IMG/VR virus record: IMGVR_UViG_3300008262_000022 | Source: a virus | Taxonomy: Duplodnaviria > Heunggongvirae > Uroviricota > Caudoviricetes | Reading direction: 5' to 3' (one strand) | Length of the DNA: 64,000 nucleotides | In this document: positions 20,853 through 42,369 of the stretch, piece by piece | How positions within the stretch are numbered: the first letter of the stretch is position 1 | Layout: every line of letters starts with the position of its first letter | The notes under the pieces: model-generated | The model's database searches: none | Told to the model about the DNA's origin: nothing | The model's input: only the letters and a program-made list of their open reading frames with translations | Position numbers and translations under genes: made by a program

Positions 20853-20946
20853 TAAAGTACCACGAGGCTTACCATCAGAACAGCCCAAACGCTGTGGTCA
20901 TTTAGTGACATAAACGAATAACCCAAGGTATAAGTTACAGTCACAC

Positions 20947-20999
20947 CCCTCAGAAAGACTAATAGACGTATTAGACACTGCTGAGGGTTTTATTTTTTT
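20947..20999 (+). terminator. rho-independent terminator-like hairpin
   Basis: CCCTCAG..27 nt..CTGAGGG followed by TTTTATTTTTT. Confidence 0.4.
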
Positions 21000-21004
21000 A
21001 TAAT

Positions 21005-21292
21005 ATGCAAGTAGGAAGTTTAGTTGAATGTATTAATGATTCATTTATACCAAAACAAATTGAATTAATACCTAATAGACCAAAACGAGGTAAAATATAC
21101 ACTATTAGACAAATAAAACAATATCCAAATAAATCAGTTGGTTTGTTATTAGAAGAAATAATAAATGAGCCTTTAATGTTACCTAATTTAGACGGATTAT
21201 TTGAACCTACATTTAATATTGAGAGATTCAGAGAATTACCTGAAGCTAATATAGAAGAATTAATTGAAGAATTAGAGTTAACTAATGACTAG
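21005..21292 (+). CDS. hypothetical protein
   Basis: ORF track. Confidence 0.45.
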   Translation: MQVGSLVECINDSFIPKQIELIPNRPKRGKIYTIRQIKQYPNKSVGLLLEEIINEPLMLPNLDGLFEPTFNIERFRELPEANIEELIEELELTND

Positions 21293-21953
21293 AATAGTTT
21301 TCATAAGCGATACACATAACCACCATAATGAAATTAAATTACCCGAAGGTGATATATTAGTTCATGCAGGGGACTTCAGTGGTAGAGGACTACCTGAAGA
21401 AGTGGGTCCATTTTTTGATTGGTTAGAAGAACAAGCTCAGGTATTCAAACATGTTATCTTTATAGCAGGTAATCATGATATGTCGTTTGAGTACAAACAT
21501 CCATGGATTGTAAATTGGTTAAGTAAATTACCAACTAATATTCATTACTTGGAAGATAGTGAGGCAATTATTGATAGTATAAAATTTTATGGTTCACCAT
21601 GGCAACCTGAATTTCATAATTGGGGATTTAACTTACCTAGAGGTAAAGCATTGGCTAAAAAATGGGAAATGATACCTATAGATACTGATGTATTAATTAC
21701 TCATACTCCTCCTCAAAACATATTAGACTATACAATTAGGGATATGATTAATGTGGGATGTGCTGATCTATATTTAAAAGTAAATCAAATTAAACCAAAA
21801 ATCCATGTATTTGGTCATATTCATGAAGGATACGGATATAAGGATATAAATGATACTCTATATCTCAATGCTAGTACGTGTAATTTAAGATACCAACCTG
21901 TTAATTCTCCAATAGTTGTTGATTTTTCTAAAGAAAATGTAGAATTTGTGTAG
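21285..21953 (+). CDS. metallophosphoesterase (calcineurin-like)
   Basis: ISDTHNHH, GDFSGRG, GNHD motifs. Confidence 0.7.
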   Translation: MTRIVFISDTHNHHNEIKLPEGDILVHAGDFSGRGLPEEVGPFFDWLEEQAQVFKHVIFIAGNHDMSFEYKHPWIVNWLSKLPTNIHYLEDSEAIIDSIKFYGSPWQPEFHNWGFNLPRGKALAKKWEMIPIDTDVLITHTPPQNILDYTIRDMINVGCADLYLKVNQIKPKIHVFGHIHEGYGYKDINDTLYLNASTCNLRYQPVNSPIVVDFSKENVEFV

Positions 21954-22902: not shown

Positions 22903-23146
22903 GGTTATAGGTAAAGATACTTTTGTAACACTAACTGTACCTCAAGCTAAAGCGGTTAATGATACATTTATATCTCAAAGAAAAACTATTAGTGAATTAA
23001 AAAATCAAAACGAATACTATAAAGATAGTCTACAACGATTTCAATCCAAACCCCATTCAGTTGATAATAGTGTAGGTTGGGAGGGTTGGTTATTTATAAC
23101 AATAGAAGGAATTATTTTTATTGCTCTTTCAATGTATTATAAATAA
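22820..23146 (+). CDS. membrane protein (overlaps the previous gene in the +1 frame)
   Basis: ORF track; 83-nt out-of-frame overlap; C-terminal TM. Confidence 0.3.
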   Translation: MNYKLLKTLLITMLLILVSNIIYSQRIRVIGKDTFVTLTVPQAKAVNDTFISQRKTISELKNQNEYYKDSLQRFQSKPHSVDNSVGWEGWLFITIEGIIFIALSMYYK

Positions 23147-23168
23147 GCTTCTTCGGAAGCTTTTATTT
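23145..23168 (+). terminator. rho-independent terminator
   Basis: AGCTTC-TTCG-GAAGCT then TTTATTT. Confidence 0.55.
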
Positions 23169-23210
23169 GCCTGTCAAAATAATTTTCATATATTTACAGA
23201 AATAAAAGTT

Positions 23211-23411
23211 ATGAAATATTTTGAAATATTTGGTCTAGGAGAATTTACAGGCCATGATCTAAAAAAAGCAAGTGAGATTTTAAAGAAAGAATTCCCAAAC
23301 GGCCCACGTATTCAACATACAGAAAGGTTACCGGGTAAATTTTCATTTAATGAAATTGCTAATCACATTCGTAATTCACATCAAGAAGTAAGTAAATCGC
23401 TACATGCATGA
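23211..23411 (+). CDS. hypothetical protein
   Basis: ATG after terminator and AAAGTTATG context; the track ORF begins at 23121. Confidence 0.4.
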   Translation: MKYFEIFGLGEFTGHDLKKASEILKKEFPNGPRIQHTERLPGKFSFNEIANHIRNSHQEVSKSLHA

Positions 23412-23869
23412 AAGTATTATTCTTAGATAATGATGGTGTAATCTGTTTATCTCATAATTGGGGTACACGTCATAAAAAGTTACAAAAATGGATGGCTAAA
23501 AATGGTAAGAAAGCATCTTACGATATGGACCATCGTTTTGATAACTTTGACACTAAAGCCATCCAAGTGCTTAATGAAATATTAACCGAAACCGGTGCGG
23601 ATTATGTTATTAGTTCGGATTGGAAACTACATGCCACACTTGAAGAGTTACAAGGATATTATTTACTTAAAGGTGTTATTAAAGCTCCTATAGCATTAAC
23701 TCCCAACCTAAAAGACTTTGATAAAGATGCGGCTGCGATGTATAGGCACAGATGGGAATTTGAACGTATGCGCTGTTTGGAAATCAAAGAATGGCTAAGA
23801 CAAAACCCAGATGTTACTCATTGGGTAGCAGTAGATGATTTGAATATGTCTAACGGTAGCAGTAGATGA
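23408..23869 (+). pseudogene. HAD-like hydrolase gene disrupted by a 31-bp tandem duplication
   Basis: FLDNDGVI (DxDG) HAD-like N-terminus; the duplication at 23825-23886 is not a multiple of three and gives a stop at 23869; removing one copy extends the frame to a TGA that overlaps the ATG at 23987. Confidence 0.5.
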
Positions 23870-23886
23870 TTTGAATATGTCTAACG
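23825..23886 (+). repeat. perfect 31-bp tandem duplication (GTAGCAGTAGATGATTTGAATATGTCTAACG x2)
   Basis: two identical adjacent copies, 23825-23855 and 23856-23886. Confidence 0.9.
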
Positions 23887-23986
23887 AGCATCTACATCCA
23901 GGATTAGATAATTTTGTATTAACTCCTCGTTCGAACGAAGGAATAAAACAAACAGGTATTAAAGAAAAAATATTAAAACATTTATT

Positions 23987-24307
23987 ATGAGAAAACAACT
24001 TTTCATTTTTATCACTCTTCTTATTGTAGCTATAGGTTGGGCTGCTATCGTCATCAATTATAAACCTGCCCCAACCAAATCTGAACAACCTAAAGAAGTT
24101 GTTGAACAGCATACAGATGAACCAAGACGATGGAAGTCATCAGAAACCGGATTGCCTATGGGTATAGTGTTAGAGGGAGCGTATATTGAAGGTTTACCAT
24201 CATCAAATTGGTTATCAATAAAAACTATAGATGGTACTACTACAATTGTAAAGAATATAGACTGGCAGTTACACGATGCTATAAATAATGGAGATATTAT
24301 AGAATAA
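23987..24307 (+). CDS. membrane protein
   Basis: N-terminal TM LFIFITLLIVAIGWAAIVI. Confidence 0.45.
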   Translation: MRKQLFIFITLLIVAIGWAAIVINYKPAPTKSEQPKEVVEQHTDEPRRWKSSETGLPMGIVLEGAYIEGLPSSNWLSIKTIDGTTTIVKNIDWQLHDAINNGDIIE

Positions 24308-24735
24308 TGAAACCACAACGAATAAGAGCACAAGTACAAATTAATCGCGATGAGTGGCTCGAGCATAAACTTCCACCTAACGAGATTGAAGTCATACTTA
24401 AACATCAATTGATAGAAAAATTATCTAAAGAATTAATTGACCAAATTGATATTACTAAAGAATCAAATGGTTGGGTAGGTGAGGAATGGAGAGTAGATAT
24501 CACAGTAATGTCAACTTATGAGTATAGAAAGTTGATAGATGAGTTAATTAGATTACAAGGAGGTGTTACTGAGACATCTGGTTACCATTGTTCAACTTGC
24601 GGTAAGTATAATCGTACTTCAGTTATATGTAACCATAATAATGATTTTAATAAGTTGATAAATAAATTATCAAGCCAAAACTTACCACCTGAATATGGTC
24701 AAATGATAACTGATAACTTTAATGATTTGGTATGA
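24307..24735 (+). CDS. zinc-ribbon protein (paralog of 28031..28252 C-terminus)
   Basis: CSTCGKYNRTSVICNHNNDFNKLINK. Confidence 0.45.
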   Translation: MKPQRIRAQVQINRDEWLEHKLPPNEIEVILKHQLIEKLSKELIDQIDITKESNGWVGEEWRVDITVMSTYEYRKLIDELIRLQGGVTETSGYHCSTCGKYNRTSVICNHNNDFNKLINKLSSQNLPPEYGQMITDNFNDLV

Positions 24736-25205
24736 GTAAAGAGTATACAATGGGAGAATTAGTGGGTGAAATAATATTGTTAAAATATTTACCTACACTT
24801 GAAACAGATTTAATTCAAACCAATAAACGAGTTAAAATAACTGATCCAAATGATTTAAAAGAAAATCAACGTTTAGATGAAATAATGGATTCTAAAATGG
24901 GGTATGCTTATATGGAGAAGGAGTATTCAGAGGCACATGGGTTATGGTTAGCACATACTAAATTTTTAGCTAAAAAATACCTACCAGAAAAACTTGAATG
25001 TAGAGTAACTCAGTTTGAAATTGATGATATAGAATCATTTAAAGAAGGTATAAACGATTATTTATGGAATTGTGATGTGAGTTGGTATGTAGCGGAAGAT
25101 GATTTCTTAGATCGTAATTCAGATGATGAATTGTCTGCAATAGATGAATTTGATAACGAAAACGAACTCCGTGAATACTTACAACAGTTTTTTGAGCGTA
25201 CTTAA
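24732..25205 (+). CDS. acidic hypothetical protein
   Basis: ORF track. Confidence 0.45.
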   Translation: MSKEYTMGELVGEIILLKYLPTLETDLIQTNKRVKITDPNDLKENQRLDEIMDSKMGYAYMEKEYSEAHGLWLAHTKFLAKKYLPEKLECRVTQFEIDDIESFKEGINDYLWNCDVSWYVAEDDFLDRNSDDELSAIDEFDNENELREYLQQFFERT

Positions 25206-26067: not shown

Positions 26068-26322
26068 ATGGAAAACAACACTTCAATAAACCACGAAAAC
26101 GGCAATGACGCTAACCGCTTGTTAGCACCCGTTTTTGATTCTTTCCCTTTGTTCTACTGTCAACACAAGGATGAACAATGGGTTTGTAAGCATTACAAGG
26201 TTGTAGATAATGATTTTTACAGCATTGAAACTAAATGTAGATTTCTTGGAATTGATAATGAAACTTGCAATAGTAAACCTTGTAATGCTGATGCGTGTCG
26301 TCAGTTTTTAAATGGGTGCTAA
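26068..26322 (+). CDS. cysteine-rich small protein
   Basis: 10 Cys in 84 aa; MENN N-terminus. Confidence 0.45.
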   Translation: MENNTSINHENGNDANRLLAPVFDSFPLFYCQHKDEQWVCKHYKVVDNDFYSIETKCRFLGIDNETCNSKPCNADACRQFLNGC

Positions 26323-28252: not shown

Positions 28253-28530
28253 AAACAATTAGAATAGGTTTACAAACCCAAGTTAATGTGGAAGTATCTC
28301 AAATTCCTCTTAGTTTAGAGGAAATTGTAGAGATGGCTGATAATCCACCAATTCCTAATTACCAACAACAAGCTAATGATTTCATTGATACTTTGGATGG
28401 TTATCACAATGTTGCTTTTTTGGAAGCACTACATATAGTAGCAGCTAAACGAATAGTTGAACATTGGAGAAAATTCTCTCCGAAACGATTAGAGGAAGAA
28501 CGATATAAACAATATTTGAAATATGAATAA
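28249..28530 (+). CDS. hypothetical protein
   Basis: ORF track. Confidence 0.45.
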   Translation: MKTIRIGLQTQVNVEVSQIPLSLEEIVEMADNPPIPNYQQQANDFIDTLDGYHNVAFLEALHIVAAKRIVEHWRKFSPKRLEEERYKQYLKYE

Positions 28531-29524
28531 ATTAGACTTAGCTTACCAAGCACTCCTACAAGACATACTTGATAATGGAGTTGAAAAGAAAGATAGAACT
28601 ACAACTGGTACAATATCAGTATTCGGTAGACAAATCCGTCATAAAATGAGTGAGGGGTTTCCATTACTCACAACAAAGAAAATGTACTTTAAAGGTATAG
28701 TAACTGAACTACTTTGGTTTTTAAGAGGTGATACTAATATCAAGTATTTAGTTGATAATGATTGTCATATTTGGGTAGGAGATTCCTTTTCTAACTATGA
28801 GAAAAATGCCGTTGTAGGTGATGTGATTGATAGTCACTATGAGCCAGCAACAGATAAATGGCATTTGTACAACAAAGAAGAGTTTATCAATATGATCAAG
28901 AAGGATGAAAGATTTGCTAAAAAGTGGGGTGAATTAGGACCTATATATGGTAAGCAATGGAGAAGTTGGAGACGATATAGAAAATTACCAAAAGATGATT
29001 ACACTACAGATTACAGAGAAAATGAACCAATAGATCAAATCGCAAACCTAATCAACGACCTTAAAACAAACCCAGACTCAAGACGATTAATGGTTAATGC
29101 TTGGAATGTAGGTGAGTTACATGAAATGGTTCTTCCTCCTTGTCACTTCTCGTTCCAATGCTATTCACATGAAAAAGAAGGTAAACGTTATTTAAGTTTA
29201 GCTTGGAATCAAAGGTCCTGTGATGTGGGGCTCGGTATCCCTTTTAATATTGCTTCTTATGGTCTATTATTAGAGATTATAGCTAAAGAGGTGGGAATGA
29301 TTCCGTATGAGTTAATTGGTAATTTAGGAGATTGCCACATCTATAATAATCATATAGATGGTCTTAAAGAACAGTTAACAAGAGAACCATATCCACTACC
29401 TAAAATATGTCTAGATTATAGAGAAGGGGAATACAATAAAGACCTCACTGATTTAACTCCTGATGATTTTGTATTATTCGATTATCAATCTCACCCATCA
29501 ATAAAACTTCCTTTATCAAACTAG
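28523..29524 (+). CDS. thyA: thymidylate synthase family protein (ThyA-like; a pyrimidine hydroxymethylase cannot be excluded)
   Basis: RRLMVNAWNVGELHEMVLPPCH and QRSCDVGLGIPFNIASY motifs; about 60-aa insertion relative to canonical ThyA. Confidence 0.8.
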   Translation: MNKLDLAYQALLQDILDNGVEKKDRTTTGTISVFGRQIRHKMSEGFPLLTTKKMYFKGIVTELLWFLRGDTNIKYLVDNDCHIWVGDSFSNYEKNAVVGDVIDSHYEPATDKWHLYNKEEFINMIKKDERFAKKWGELGPIYGKQWRSWRRYRKLPKDDYTTDYRENEPIDQIANLINDLKTNPDSRRLMVNAWNVGELHEMVLPPCHFSFQCYSHEKEGKRYLSLAWNQRSCDVGLGIPFNIASYGLLLEIIAKEVGMIPYELIGNLGDCHIYNNHIDGLKEQLTREPYPLPKICLDYREGEYNKDLTDLTPDDFVLFDYQSHPSIKLPLSN

Positions 29525-29568
29525 TGTAAGAAACATAATGGCGCAATATTTATAATAAACACGCCATT

Positions 29569-30081
29569 ATGATTTCAATTTATATATTATTAGAAAATGA
29601 AACACCTGTTTATTTAGGTAAAACCAATGAACCAAACAGACGATTAAGAGAGCATCGAATGAATTTTAGTAAAGATATTTGTCTTGAAGTTATAGATGAA
29701 GTAGAAGAAAATGAATGGATGTTTTGGGAACAATGGTGGATTGGATTATTTCATAATTGGGGAATAAAATTATTAAATGGAAATAAAGGTGGAGGGGGTC
29801 CTGAGTATCAAAAAGAGTCATCTAAAAAACTAATAGGGGATAAACAGAGAGGAATCAAAAAACCAACAGTTAGTAATAAACTTAAAGGGCAAAAAATAAC
29901 TTGGGATTTAGGAACTAGTACCGCTGTTTTACAATTTGATAAACAAGGAAATTTTATAGCAGAATACAAATCAATGGGTGAAGCATATTCTAAAACAGGA
30001 GTCCCAAGCTCAGCTATATGTGAGGTGTGTAAAGGAAGAAGAAAATCAGCTCATAAATTTATTTGGAAATACAAAGAATAA
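29569..30081 (+). CDS. GIY-YIG homing endonuclease-like
   Basis: SIYILLE..VYLGKT..RRLREH N-terminal GIY-YIG pattern. Confidence 0.5.
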   Translation: MISIYILLENETPVYLGKTNEPNRRLREHRMNFSKDICLEVIDEVEENEWMFWEQWWIGLFHNWGIKLLNGNKGGGGPEYQKESSKKLIGDKQRGIKKPTVSNKLKGQKITWDLGTSTAVLQFDKQGNFIAEYKSMGEAYSKTGVPSSAICEVCKGRRKSAHKFIWKYKE

Positions 30082-35235: not shown

Positions 35236-36321
35236 ATGCAGTTAAATACATTATATAAAAGAGCAGTAAACGGTAAAATTAATGAGTGGACCGTTGAAGT
35301 AAATGGTGCTTGTTTTAGAACAATATCAGGTTATACTGATGGTATTAAAACAACAAGCGAATGGACATGTTGTGAACCTAAAAATCAAGGTAAGAAAAAC
35401 GCTACAACAGCCGAAGAACAAGCATTAGCAGAGGCTACAGCTATGCATCGCAAACGTATTGAGTTAGGATCATTTGAAAACATTAATGATATAGACACAC
35501 CAGTTTATTTCAAACCAATGTTAGCTCATGACTATAATGATTACAAAGATAAAATCAAATTACCTGTAGCAATACAACCTAAATTAGATGGTGTACGTTG
35601 TATTGTTAGAGCAGACGGAATGTGGTCACGTAATGGTAAACCCATCATTTCAGCACCTCACATATTCGAAGCATTAACTCCATTATTTGAAACTAATCCT
35701 GATTTGATATTGGATGGTGAGTTATATTGTGATAAAACAACAGCTGGATTTAATACAATTATATCTTGTGTTCGTAAAACAAAACCAACTGAAGCTGATT
35801 TATCATTAAGTAAACAATTCATTCAATACCATATCTACGATGTTCCTAGTGTTGAGGATAATTTCATGGAACGAATAGCTAGTATTAATGGATTAGCATT
35901 ACCTGAATGCTGTAAAGTAGTACATACACATTGGGTTAGAGAACAATCACATGTCGATTATTTATATGGTTTATTTACAGAACAAGGCTATGAGGGACAA
36001 ATGATTAGATTAAATGCTCCATACGAAAATAAGCGCTCTAAATCGCTTTTAAAACGTAAAGAATTCGTTGATGCTGAGTTTACTATATTGGGTGTTGAGG
36101 AAGGTATTGGTAATTTATCAGGTAAAGTTGGTCGTCTTAATTTTGAAATAAACGGTAAACCATTTAATGCTGCTGTAAACGGAGATTGGGAATATATTGA
36201 ACGTCTATGGAAGAGTAGAGAAGGATTAGTAGGTAAAACAGCTACAGTCAAGTACTTCGAATTAACAGAGGATCAAATTCCCCGCTTTCCTAAAGTAATA
36301 GCAATTCGTGATTTTGAATAA
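35236..36321 (+). CDS. ATP-dependent DNA ligase
   Basis: motif I QPKLDGVRC (KxDG) and OB-domain-like C-terminus. Confidence 0.75.
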   Translation: MQLNTLYKRAVNGKINEWTVEVNGACFRTISGYTDGIKTTSEWTCCEPKNQGKKNATTAEEQALAEATAMHRKRIELGSFENINDIDTPVYFKPMLAHDYNDYKDKIKLPVAIQPKLDGVRCIVRADGMWSRNGKPIISAPHIFEALTPLFETNPDLILDGELYCDKTTAGFNTIISCVRKTKPTEADLSLSKQFIQYHIYDVPSVEDNFMERIASINGLALPECCKVVHTHWVREQSHVDYLYGLFTEQGYEGQMIRLNAPYENKRSKSLLKRKEFVDAEFTILGVEEGIGNLSGKVGRLNFEINGKPFNAAVNGDWEYIERLWKSREGLVGKTATVKYFELTEDQIPRFPKVIAIRDFE

Positions 36322-36365: not shown

Positions 36366-37178
36366 ATGAAAATAAAGTTAGATAAACATAAAATATTCTT
36401 TACATCAGATACTCACTATGGACATACAAATATTTGTCGTGGTATAAGTAATTGGAGAGATGAAAGTGGTAATGTACCTGTAAATCAAACTCGTGATTTT
36501 GATACACTAGAACAGATGAATGATAAGATTGTTGAGTCGATCAACAGTGTTGTAGGTGAGGATGATATCTTATTTCACTTAGGTGATTGGTCATTTGGTG
36601 GGATGGATAATATAGTCAAATTTAGGCGTAAGATTAAATGTAAAAACATCCACTTAATATTGGGTAATCACGACCATCATATTGAACGTAATAAACAACT
36701 AACCAATTACTATAAAAACCCAGATACATTAGAAATAATGGAAGGTAATATAGATGATAATTTTTATGATGAATATAAATTTGGAGAATATTGGGATAAT
36801 AGGGTATATATTCAAGACCTATTCAGTTCGGTAAATCAATACCTAAGATTATCAGTATCGTTTTACCCAGGTACTACCTTATATCAAGGCGAACATGAGT
36901 TTGTACTAATGCATTACCCAATTGCAAGTTGGCATAATATGAATGATGGTGTTATACATTTGCATGGACACGTTCACTTACCTCCAGATAAAAAACTATC
37001 ACAAGGTAAAGCAATGGATGTGGGTGTAGATGGAAACAACTTAATGCCTTATACACTTGGCCAAATTGTAAACATAATGCATAAACAACCTATCGCTAAA
37101 TTATCTTTACCTCAAGACCACCACGAGGAAAAGTTAAGTGGTAATGGTGGTAATAAAAAGGGTGGTTCAAAATTTTAA
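36366..37178 (+). CDS. metallophosphoesterase (calcineurin-like)
   Basis: SDTHYGH, GDWSFGG, GNHDHH, GH.H motifs. Confidence 0.7.
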   Translation: MKIKLDKHKIFFTSDTHYGHTNICRGISNWRDESGNVPVNQTRDFDTLEQMNDKIVESINSVVGEDDILFHLGDWSFGGMDNIVKFRRKIKCKNIHLILGNHDHHIERNKQLTNYYKNPDTLEIMEGNIDDNFYDEYKFGEYWDNRVYIQDLFSSVNQYLRLSVSFYPGTTLYQGEHEFVLMHYPIASWHNMNDGVIHLHGHVHLPPDKKLSQGKAMDVGVDGNNLMPYTLGQIVNIMHKQPIAKLSLPQDHHEEKLSGNGGNKKGGSKF

Positions 37179-41238: not shown

Positions 41239-42369
41239 ATGGAAAATTTAAATAGCGTTTGCTACGTAGCAAAAATTGATGAAATTAAAGCAATTGAAGG
41301 AGCCGATAACATTGTACAAGGTGTTATCGGTGGGTGGAATTGCATTATTAAGAAAGGTGAACATACTGCAGGTGAATTAGTTGTAGTAGCAACTACTGAT
41401 GCTGTTATCCCTCAAGACTTATCAGATAAAATGGGAGTTACTAACTACCTAAGAAAAGGAGGTAGAGTAAGAACTGTTAAATTAAGAGGTGTATATTCAG
41501 AATGTTTAATCATCCCAACTAAATACATTCCAGGATATGGAGACATGTATAAAGAAGGAGATGACATGATGGAAAAATTTGGTATCTTCAAATATGAACC
41601 ACCAGCAGTACAAGTACAATTAGCTTCAGGTCGTAAAATTAAGTACCATCAAAATCCAAACTTTGGAGTGTACTATAAATTCCCTAACATTAAAAATGTT
41701 AAAGGTATATTTACTGAGGAGGATGAAGTTCAAATCACTCGTAAGTTACATGGTACAAATGCTCGTTACGGTATTGTAAAGAAAACTAAATTATCGTTTT
41801 GGGATAAGGTTAAGAAGTTCTTTGGTTTTGCGGATGAATGGATTGAGTATGAGTATGTTTATGGTTCACATAATGTAGAAAAAGGCAGTGACTCACAAGG
41901 TTTCTATGATACAGATGTTTGGAGAACAATAGCTGATAAATATTTTATTCAAGATAGATTATGGTCGTATGTTAAAACATATGGTCCAGAGATTATTGGA
42001 AATGGAGTTATATTGTATGGTGAGATTTATGGTCCTGGTATTCAAAAGAACTATGATTACGGTTTAAAAGAAATTGAATTTGCAGGATTTGATATTGTGG
42101 AAAACGGAAAGTACTTAAATACATATTTAGCTGGGTATATGATTGAAGATATGCTTAACTTACCTCACGCACCTGAATTATATAACGGTTTATGGTCTCA
42201 AGAAATTCAAGACCGTTATACATTCAATAATAATATTGAGGGAACTAAAGTACCACATGAAGGTATTGTTATTAAACATGTAAGTGGTGATCGTCATAAA
42301 GTGGCAAAGTGTATAAACCCGCAGTATTTAATCTATAGTGAACATAATGACGTTGGTGATAGCCATTAA
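41239..42369 (+). CDS. RNA ligase (Rnl2/Rnl5 DraRnl-like nucleotidyltransferase)
   Basis: KLHGTN (KxHGxN motif I); N-terminal VAKIDEIKAIEGADNIVQGVIGGWNCIIKKGE domain as in DraRnl-type ligases. Confidence 0.55.
   Translation: MENLNSVCYVAKIDEIKAIEGADNIVQGVIGGWNCIIKKGEHTAGELVVVATTDAVIPQDLSDKMGVTNYLRKGGRVRTVKLRGVYSECLIIPTKYIPGYGDMYKEGDDMMEKFGIFKYEPPAVQVQLASGRKIKYHQNPNFGVYYKFPNIKNVKGIFTEEDEVQITRKLHGTNARYGIVKKTKLSFWDKVKKFFGFADEWIEYEYVYGSHNVEKGSDSQGFYDTDVWRTIADKYFIQDRLWSYVKTYGPEIIGNGVILYGEIYGPGIQKNYDYGLKEIEFAGFDIVENGKYLNTYLAGYMIEDMLNLPHAPELYNGLWSQEIQDRYTFNNNIEGTKVPHEGIVIKHVSGDRHKVAKCINPQYLIYSEHNDVGDSH

Follow-up and report, generated by a model that had tools for sequence, protein, structure and literature searches.

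An apparently private 31-bp tandem duplication truncates a HAD_SAK_2 gene in one assembly of an uncultured phage

The window analyzed here is a 64-kb stretch of DNA (64,000 nt, to which all coordinates refer unless a contig is named) belonging to a ~172-kb uncultured phage with 30.8% GC. It encodes a GroEL-like chaperonin (1345-2976; phrog_5725, E 1.6e-146), an ATP-dependent DNA ligase (35236-36321), an RNA ligase (41239-42369; PF09414 and a PHA02142 OB domain), two metallophosphoesterases (21285-21953 and 36366-37178) and two glycosyltransferases, together with a 333-aa thymidylate synthase that is followed by a GIY-YIG ORF at 29569-30081 (both within 28523-30081). A search of the 64 kb for tRNA genes found none. 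The locus of interest starts with a terminator-like hairpin, AAGCTTCTTCGGAAGCTT, with a T-rich tail (23145-23162), which lies directly before promoter-like hexamers (23167-23222; 23145-23222 for the whole element), and these features appear to mark the start of a tightly coupled gene string at 23211-25205 that includes a HAD-like gene. The first gene after the hairpin and the promoter-like sites encodes 66 aa (23211..23411, plus strand), and its TGA overlaps the ATG of the HAD gene within an ATGA at 23408-23411. The HAD_SAK_2 ORF itself (23408..23869, plus strand) is truncated at 153 aa, its orphaned 3′ end occupies 23877..23990 (plus strand), and a gene for a 106-aa protein with a hydrophobic N-terminus follows at 23987..24307 (plus strand), its ATG overlapping the native HAD stop.

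Within the HAD gene, a 31-bp unit, GGTAGCAGTAGATGATTTGAATATGTCTAAC, is present as two perfect head-to-tail copies on the plus strand, at 23824..23854 and 23855..23885. Copy 1 in the native frame encodes ..(W)VAVDDLNMSN, and copy 2, taken here as the extra 31 bp, is read in a +1-shifted frame as GSSR*; which of the two is the new copy and which the old cannot be defined. Base 23886 (G) also matches, so the period-31 identity spans 63 nt, and the phasing of the original prediction (23825-23855 and 23856-23886) is equally valid for this reason, with the start at 23824 fitting as well. That the duplication is perfect and 31 bp long was confirmed by TRF (period 31, 2.0 copies, 100% matches, score 126, with the second-ranking array of the window at 63) and by an exhaustive scan for perfect tandem duplications with periods of 10-199, which returned only the 31-bp unit and one 10-mer at 23212, and thus no second duplication with a period of 11-199 elsewhere in the 64-kb window. 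The scan covered this window, and the other ~108 kb of the contig lie outside it. By our own estimate, a chance 31-nt match at 30.8% GC has a probability of about 1e-17 per position, and a chance origin of the duplication is excluded. The two copies meet at ...ATATGTCTAAC|GGTAGCAGTAG... (TCTAAC|GGTAGC), and the flanks of the unit share a microhomology of 1 nt only (G, where the unit start equals the base after it). A 7-bp stem (GTAGATG/CATCTAC) spans the 3′ edge of the unit, and the fold around the unit is no better than that of shuffled sequence (z = -0.56), which leaves a slippage-promoting structure without significance.

With a length of 31 bp, which is not divisible by 3, the duplication shifts the frame of the HAD gene. 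As had been proposed, the ORF from 23408 is halted at 23869, where it ends in ...VAVDDLNMSNGSSR* (VAVDDLNMSN(149)-GSSR, with the TGA at 23867-23869). The truncation stands as originally described with one correction, namely that the native sequence is kept through N149, so that 34 residues (150-183) are lost. The truncated ORF keeps the DxD (D7, D9), SSDW (S69-S70) and DD (D143-D144) motifs. When one copy is deleted, the frame continues to a 183-aa protein that ends in ...MSNEHLHPGLDNFVLTPRSNEGIKQTGIKEKILKHLL* (C-terminus ...KEKILKHLL), and its TGA at 23988-23990 overlaps the ATG of the next gene at 23987 (ATGA, 23987-23990), in agreement with the overlap foreseen from the sequence. In the window as it stands, this 3′ end is left as an orphan ORF with 37 codons from ATG 23877, equal to native residues 147-183. 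As listed, the ORF starts at TTG 23871 and has 39 aa, with ATG 23877 lying 7 nt past the premature stop; its end still shares the ATGA with the start of the next gene, and its 39-aa product was absent from the protein collection in an exact-sequence look-up.

The HAD-like assignment of the gene holds for both forms, with matches to Pfam HAD_SAK_2 (PF18143) well above the curated gathering threshold of 27.5 bits: 68.6 bits over profile positions 1-112 of 139 as the gene stands, and 73.1 bits over positions 1-135 of 139 with one copy removed. The PHROGs match is phrog_1818, which has no assigned function. With the restored protein as query, 3,925 homologues were found in the database. Lengths among the best 120 of these range from 155 to 207 aa (median 189), query coverage is 95-100% for nearly all of them, and every one carries PF18143 among its precomputed domains. 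The C-terminal tail is spanned by all 120 of these closest homologues, each a single chain. The original prediction had allowed that homologues might also end at the break, which would make the short form the native gene; none of these 120 does so, all being full length through the tail.

The lost residues are better conserved than the rest of the protein (mean identity 0.69 versus 0.61). We used an alignment of the closest 118 homologues for the conservation columns, in which the numbering of the reference homologue P0001 is that of the window protein plus 1. The columns invariant among the 118 include the LD-D-GV nucleophile motif, the SSDW motif and, past the break, F160 and G169-I170-K171-Q172 in P0001, which correspond to F159, G168, I169, K170 and Q171 in the window protein. 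Motif I is the DxD of FLDNDGV (D7 and D9, invariant as D8/D10 in P0001, strand E2-7), motif II consists of the invariant S70, S71, D72 and W73 after strand E66-69, and motif IV comprises D145, which is invariant, and D144, shared by 90% or more of the sequences, where strand E137-144 ends (all P0001 numbering), with motifs II and IV both upstream of the frameshift. The invariant lysines K93 and K171 (P0001) are candidates for motif III, and K171 lies inside the lost tail. The AlphaFold model of P0001 (88% identical to the window protein, pLDDT 96.6) has a Rossmann-like HAD fold, in which strand 160-162 and helix 175-183 fall after the break. According to this model, the truncated product would lack the final beta-strand of the Rossmann-like core as well as the invariant EGIKQ loop and the helix at the C-terminus. 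With these elements gone, inactivation is a reasonable reading even though the acidic catalytic motifs stay in the N-terminal fragment, and the truncated protein is probably misfolded, unstable or inactive, which would make the gene a fresh pseudogene.

PF18143 is the HAD domain of 'Swiss Army Knife' RNA repair proteins, with PHROG 1818 as its counterpart. In contrast to those proteins, the phage protein is a stand-alone chain of 183 aa and not part of a multi-domain protein, and its gene is broken in the window. Its sequence identity to magnesium-dependent phosphatase 1 (MDP-1, PDB 1u7o) and to the T4 polynucleotide kinase/phosphatase (PDB 2ia5, phosphatase domain) is only 13%, and unlike the latter enzyme the HAD protein here has no kinase domain; Foldseek gave no match at E ≤ 0.001. 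Judging from the Pfam name and from an RNA ligase encoded 17 kb away, a putative role in RNA-end healing or repair is plausible.

Comparison with related phage genomes, which the original prediction had put forward as a check, gave a single copy of the unit in all relatives aligned and an intact gene in all the near-identical ones. Eleven contigs are 99.3-100% identical to the window at the DNA level on both sides of the unit, over 1.5-10.9 kb each and up to 13.6 kb (L005, NCBI GCA_031545585.1; L006, JGI 3300008107; L007, JGI 3300008108; L008, GCA_031546225.1; L009, JGI 3300042691; L010, GCA_031545195.1; L012, Logan SRR28428251; L014, JGI 3300008448; L015, JGI 3300008266; L016, GCA_031545355.1; L017, Logan SRR7182476). 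All 11 have one copy of the unit, and in all 11 the 183-aa product of the HAD_SAK_2 gene matches the restored protein at 100% identity, while the gene itself shares 4 nt with the one that follows. When aligned to the window by BLAST, each of the 11 contigs breaks into two segments at 23853/23855, and 30-32 nt of contig sequence belong to both segments; aligned to a single-copy model of the window, the same contigs match end to end and the break is gone. No other indels against the near-identical contigs were found over 13.6 kb. A twelfth near-identical contig (L032, ENA ERZ27248008), compared by gene call only, has an identical 183-aa gene call, and four further relatives with 87-99% identity (L001-L004) have one copy each. 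In these five contigs, too, the HAD gene ends in a 4-nt overlap with its downstream neighbor.

Database look-ups gave the same pattern. By exact sequence, the intact protein was found on 8 contigs, the longest of 171,732 bp (8-13 contigs overall), and the truncated 153-aa product on one only, a JGI contig of 172,418 bp that is presumably the source of the window. The neighboring proteins are unchanged on 13-19 public contigs, with the downstream 106-aa protein identical on 13. The junction TCTAAC|GGTAGC occurs in no other public contig among those searched. Exact scans with the single-copy context and a 29-mer returned 0 matches in IMG/VR viral contigs and GTDB genomes, and the exact scan of metagenomes returned three relatives, all single-copy. 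No isolated phage genome matched 23000-24800 by megablast, and tblastn of the restored protein matched nothing but two huge uncultured phages, at 26-31%, which suggests a phage without a close cultured relative; a literature search yielded nothing specific. On these sequence comparisons, the duplication is derived and private to one assembly, and it is the one structural feature that sets the window apart from its otherwise nearly clonal relatives. The single-copy relatives and the full-length homologues thus support the earlier reading of a private, derived and inactivating duplication.

A different change was observed in the closest divergent relative, L001 (ENA ERZ27247995 k141_196811; 651 nt, ~98.6% identical). 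In the upstream ATGA of this contig, a T>G at L001:98 (window 23409) converts the HAD ATG to AGG and the TGA of the upstream gene to GGA, and the HAD gene call starts at M29, past the DxD. Either the HAD gene has been hit independently a second time here, or the contig, which is short and of low coverage, contains a sequencing error.

To account for the extra copy, we lean towards a real and very recent tandem duplication in the phage population over an assembly artefact, two options between which the original prediction did not choose, and we infer that the duplication is present in the DNA and not just in the assembly. Replication slippage or template switching may have duplicated the 31 nt, and the resulting frameshift after codon 149 would knock out a conserved stand-alone HAD_SAK_2 gene. 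Ribosomes would then stop 118 nt short of the next gene rather than on its ATG, and the ATGA coupling to the 106-aa gene would presumably be lost or weakened unless the orphan ORF (TTG 23871 or ATG 23877 to 23990) is translated. Two 31-bp direct repeats could also be deleted by similar slippage, which would revert the allele. Because a perfect repeat is deletable in this way, the allele is expected to be short-lived, which fits its single sighting.

Several observations are consistent with this preference for a real mutation. The duplication is the sole perfect tandem duplication of more than 10 bp in the 64 kb, and a de Bruijn assembler outputs only k-mers that are present in the reads and cannot write an unsupported junction. 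A contig of 172 kb implies a near-clonal population, in which a private mutation of the founder would be the consensus; other samples yielded fragments of 1-17 kb only. Speaking against a real mutation are the 1-nt microhomology, which is weak for classical slipped-strand mispairing, and the fact that a frameshift in a conserved gene is a priori uncommon as the consensus of a natural population.

Two contigs of ~2 kb from other samples begin in or near the unit (in single-copy coordinates of the window): L024 (JGI 3300021599) starts at unit base 4, window 23827, and L025 (Logan SRR7182478) starts 10 nt before the unit, at window 23814. If one-copy and two-copy alleles coexisted, a de Bruijn graph would be expected to break near the unit, and the two starts miss the exact positions predicted for such branching by 3 and 10-12 nt. 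They could therefore reflect graph branching from coexisting alleles or chance low-coverage ends, and being only suggestive they are left unexplained. The assembly GCA_031545355.1 is also broken, ~110 nt downstream, where L016 ends and L022 starts.

The main competing explanation, which we consider possible but less likely, is that the genome is single-copy and that the second copy was produced in assembly, for example where a 31-nt overlap between contig ends was joined untrimmed at a merging, scaffolding or gap-closing step. The repeat is perfect, its length of exactly 31 nt is a very common k-mer size of de Bruijn assemblers, and an untrimmed overlap at a join would leave just such a repeat. 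Two copies are present in one assembly, with one copy in 12 other assemblies of a virtually identical genome, and the duplication destroys a conserved gene and has just 1 nt of flanking microhomology. However, the 153-aa product is recorded on the raw JGI contig, which makes a rotated circular contig with an untrimmed k-overlap unlikely. The usual JGI k lists, which we take to be 23-123 for MEGAHIT and 33-127 for metaSPAdes (as generally used, not specifically for this sample), do not contain 31, the 64-kb window holds no second duplication of this type, there is neither an N run nor another indel nearby, and graph assemblers emit only read-supported k-mers.

A real duplication could also have left the gene functional, a reading that we hold to be very improbable. 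The HAD enzyme might work in two pieces, as a 153-aa N-terminal and a 37-aa C-terminal fragment, or the repeat might act as a reversible on/off switch of the HAD gene and the coupled downstream genes. The break comes downstream of the DxD, SSDW and DD motifs, the in-frame ATG 23877 restarts the native frame at residue 147 with the ATGA coupling kept, and tandem repeats of such size readily gain and lose copies. If either form of this reading were true, the contig breaks of L024 and L025 at the unit would reflect coexisting alleles. However, no relative is organized in this way (120 of the 120 closest homologues are single-chain), the 39-aa ORF was not found in the protein collection, the break falls within the core fold ahead of the last beta-strand in the AlphaFold model, and the two-copy form is present in one assembly only, with three or other copy numbers in none. 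Finally, a programmed ribosomal frameshift or other recoding that restores the frame with an insertion of roughly 10 residues can be rejected as hardly credible: a -1 shift between 23855 and 23866 would regain the native frame, but there is no slippery heptamer in GGTAGCAGTAGATGA, local structure is not significant, and the relatives encode the HAD protein in one frame without the insert.

Returning to the favored reading of a real mutation, spontaneous frameshifts by short tandem duplication are classic in phage T4 rII and in E. coli lacI. As in those mutations, the lesion here is a perfect head-to-tail copy of tens of bp in a coding region, with a length that is not a multiple of 3, it is absent from near-clonal relatives, and easy reversion is expected. 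It differs from them in its 1-nt microhomology, in being a metagenome consensus and not a selected mutant, and in being known from assembly alone. With untrimmed de Bruijn k-overlaps it shares a perfect direct repeat at a typical k (31) in one assembly, whereas its repeat is internal to a raw contig and not at the ends, and there is no second instance in 64 kb.

For annotation, 23408-23869 should be described as a disrupted HAD_SAK_2 gene, or given in the 183-aa form if reads show one copy, and not as a short HAD variant with a separate 39-aa ORF. The value of the observation lies mainly in annotation and quality control, and it opens no larger question. The protein family concerned is a known one, and the lesion is of an ordinary type, if it is not perhaps an error of assembly. 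If real, the duplication would be a clean natural case of a gene freshly knocked out, and able to revert, in an environmental phage population that is near-clonal; this conserved putative phosphatase would then seem to be dispensable, at least transiently.

The aligned contigs also show strain variation at other places in the window. Four of them (L005, L006, L008 and L014) begin exactly at window 21118, and two (L010 and L016) read through this position with 17-19 clustered differences from the window at 20921-21117. The region 20921-21118 is a strain-variable patch that breaks assemblies; a link between the recurrent contig start at 21118 and the duplication was considered and rejected, as the start is the edge of this patch. 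The match of L008 to the window ends at 29145, within the gene for thymidylate synthase; after 10 clustered mismatches at 29099-29137 the contig diverges, with its thyA called at 252 aa (L008:7950-8639) versus 333 aa in the window; this looks like a homing-endonuclease-associated polymorphism. L010 (GCA_031545195.1) leaves the window at 26309, with a minus-strand gene of 118 aa (L010:5375-5545) that is absent from the window, and position 26309 is another strain-specific replacement point.
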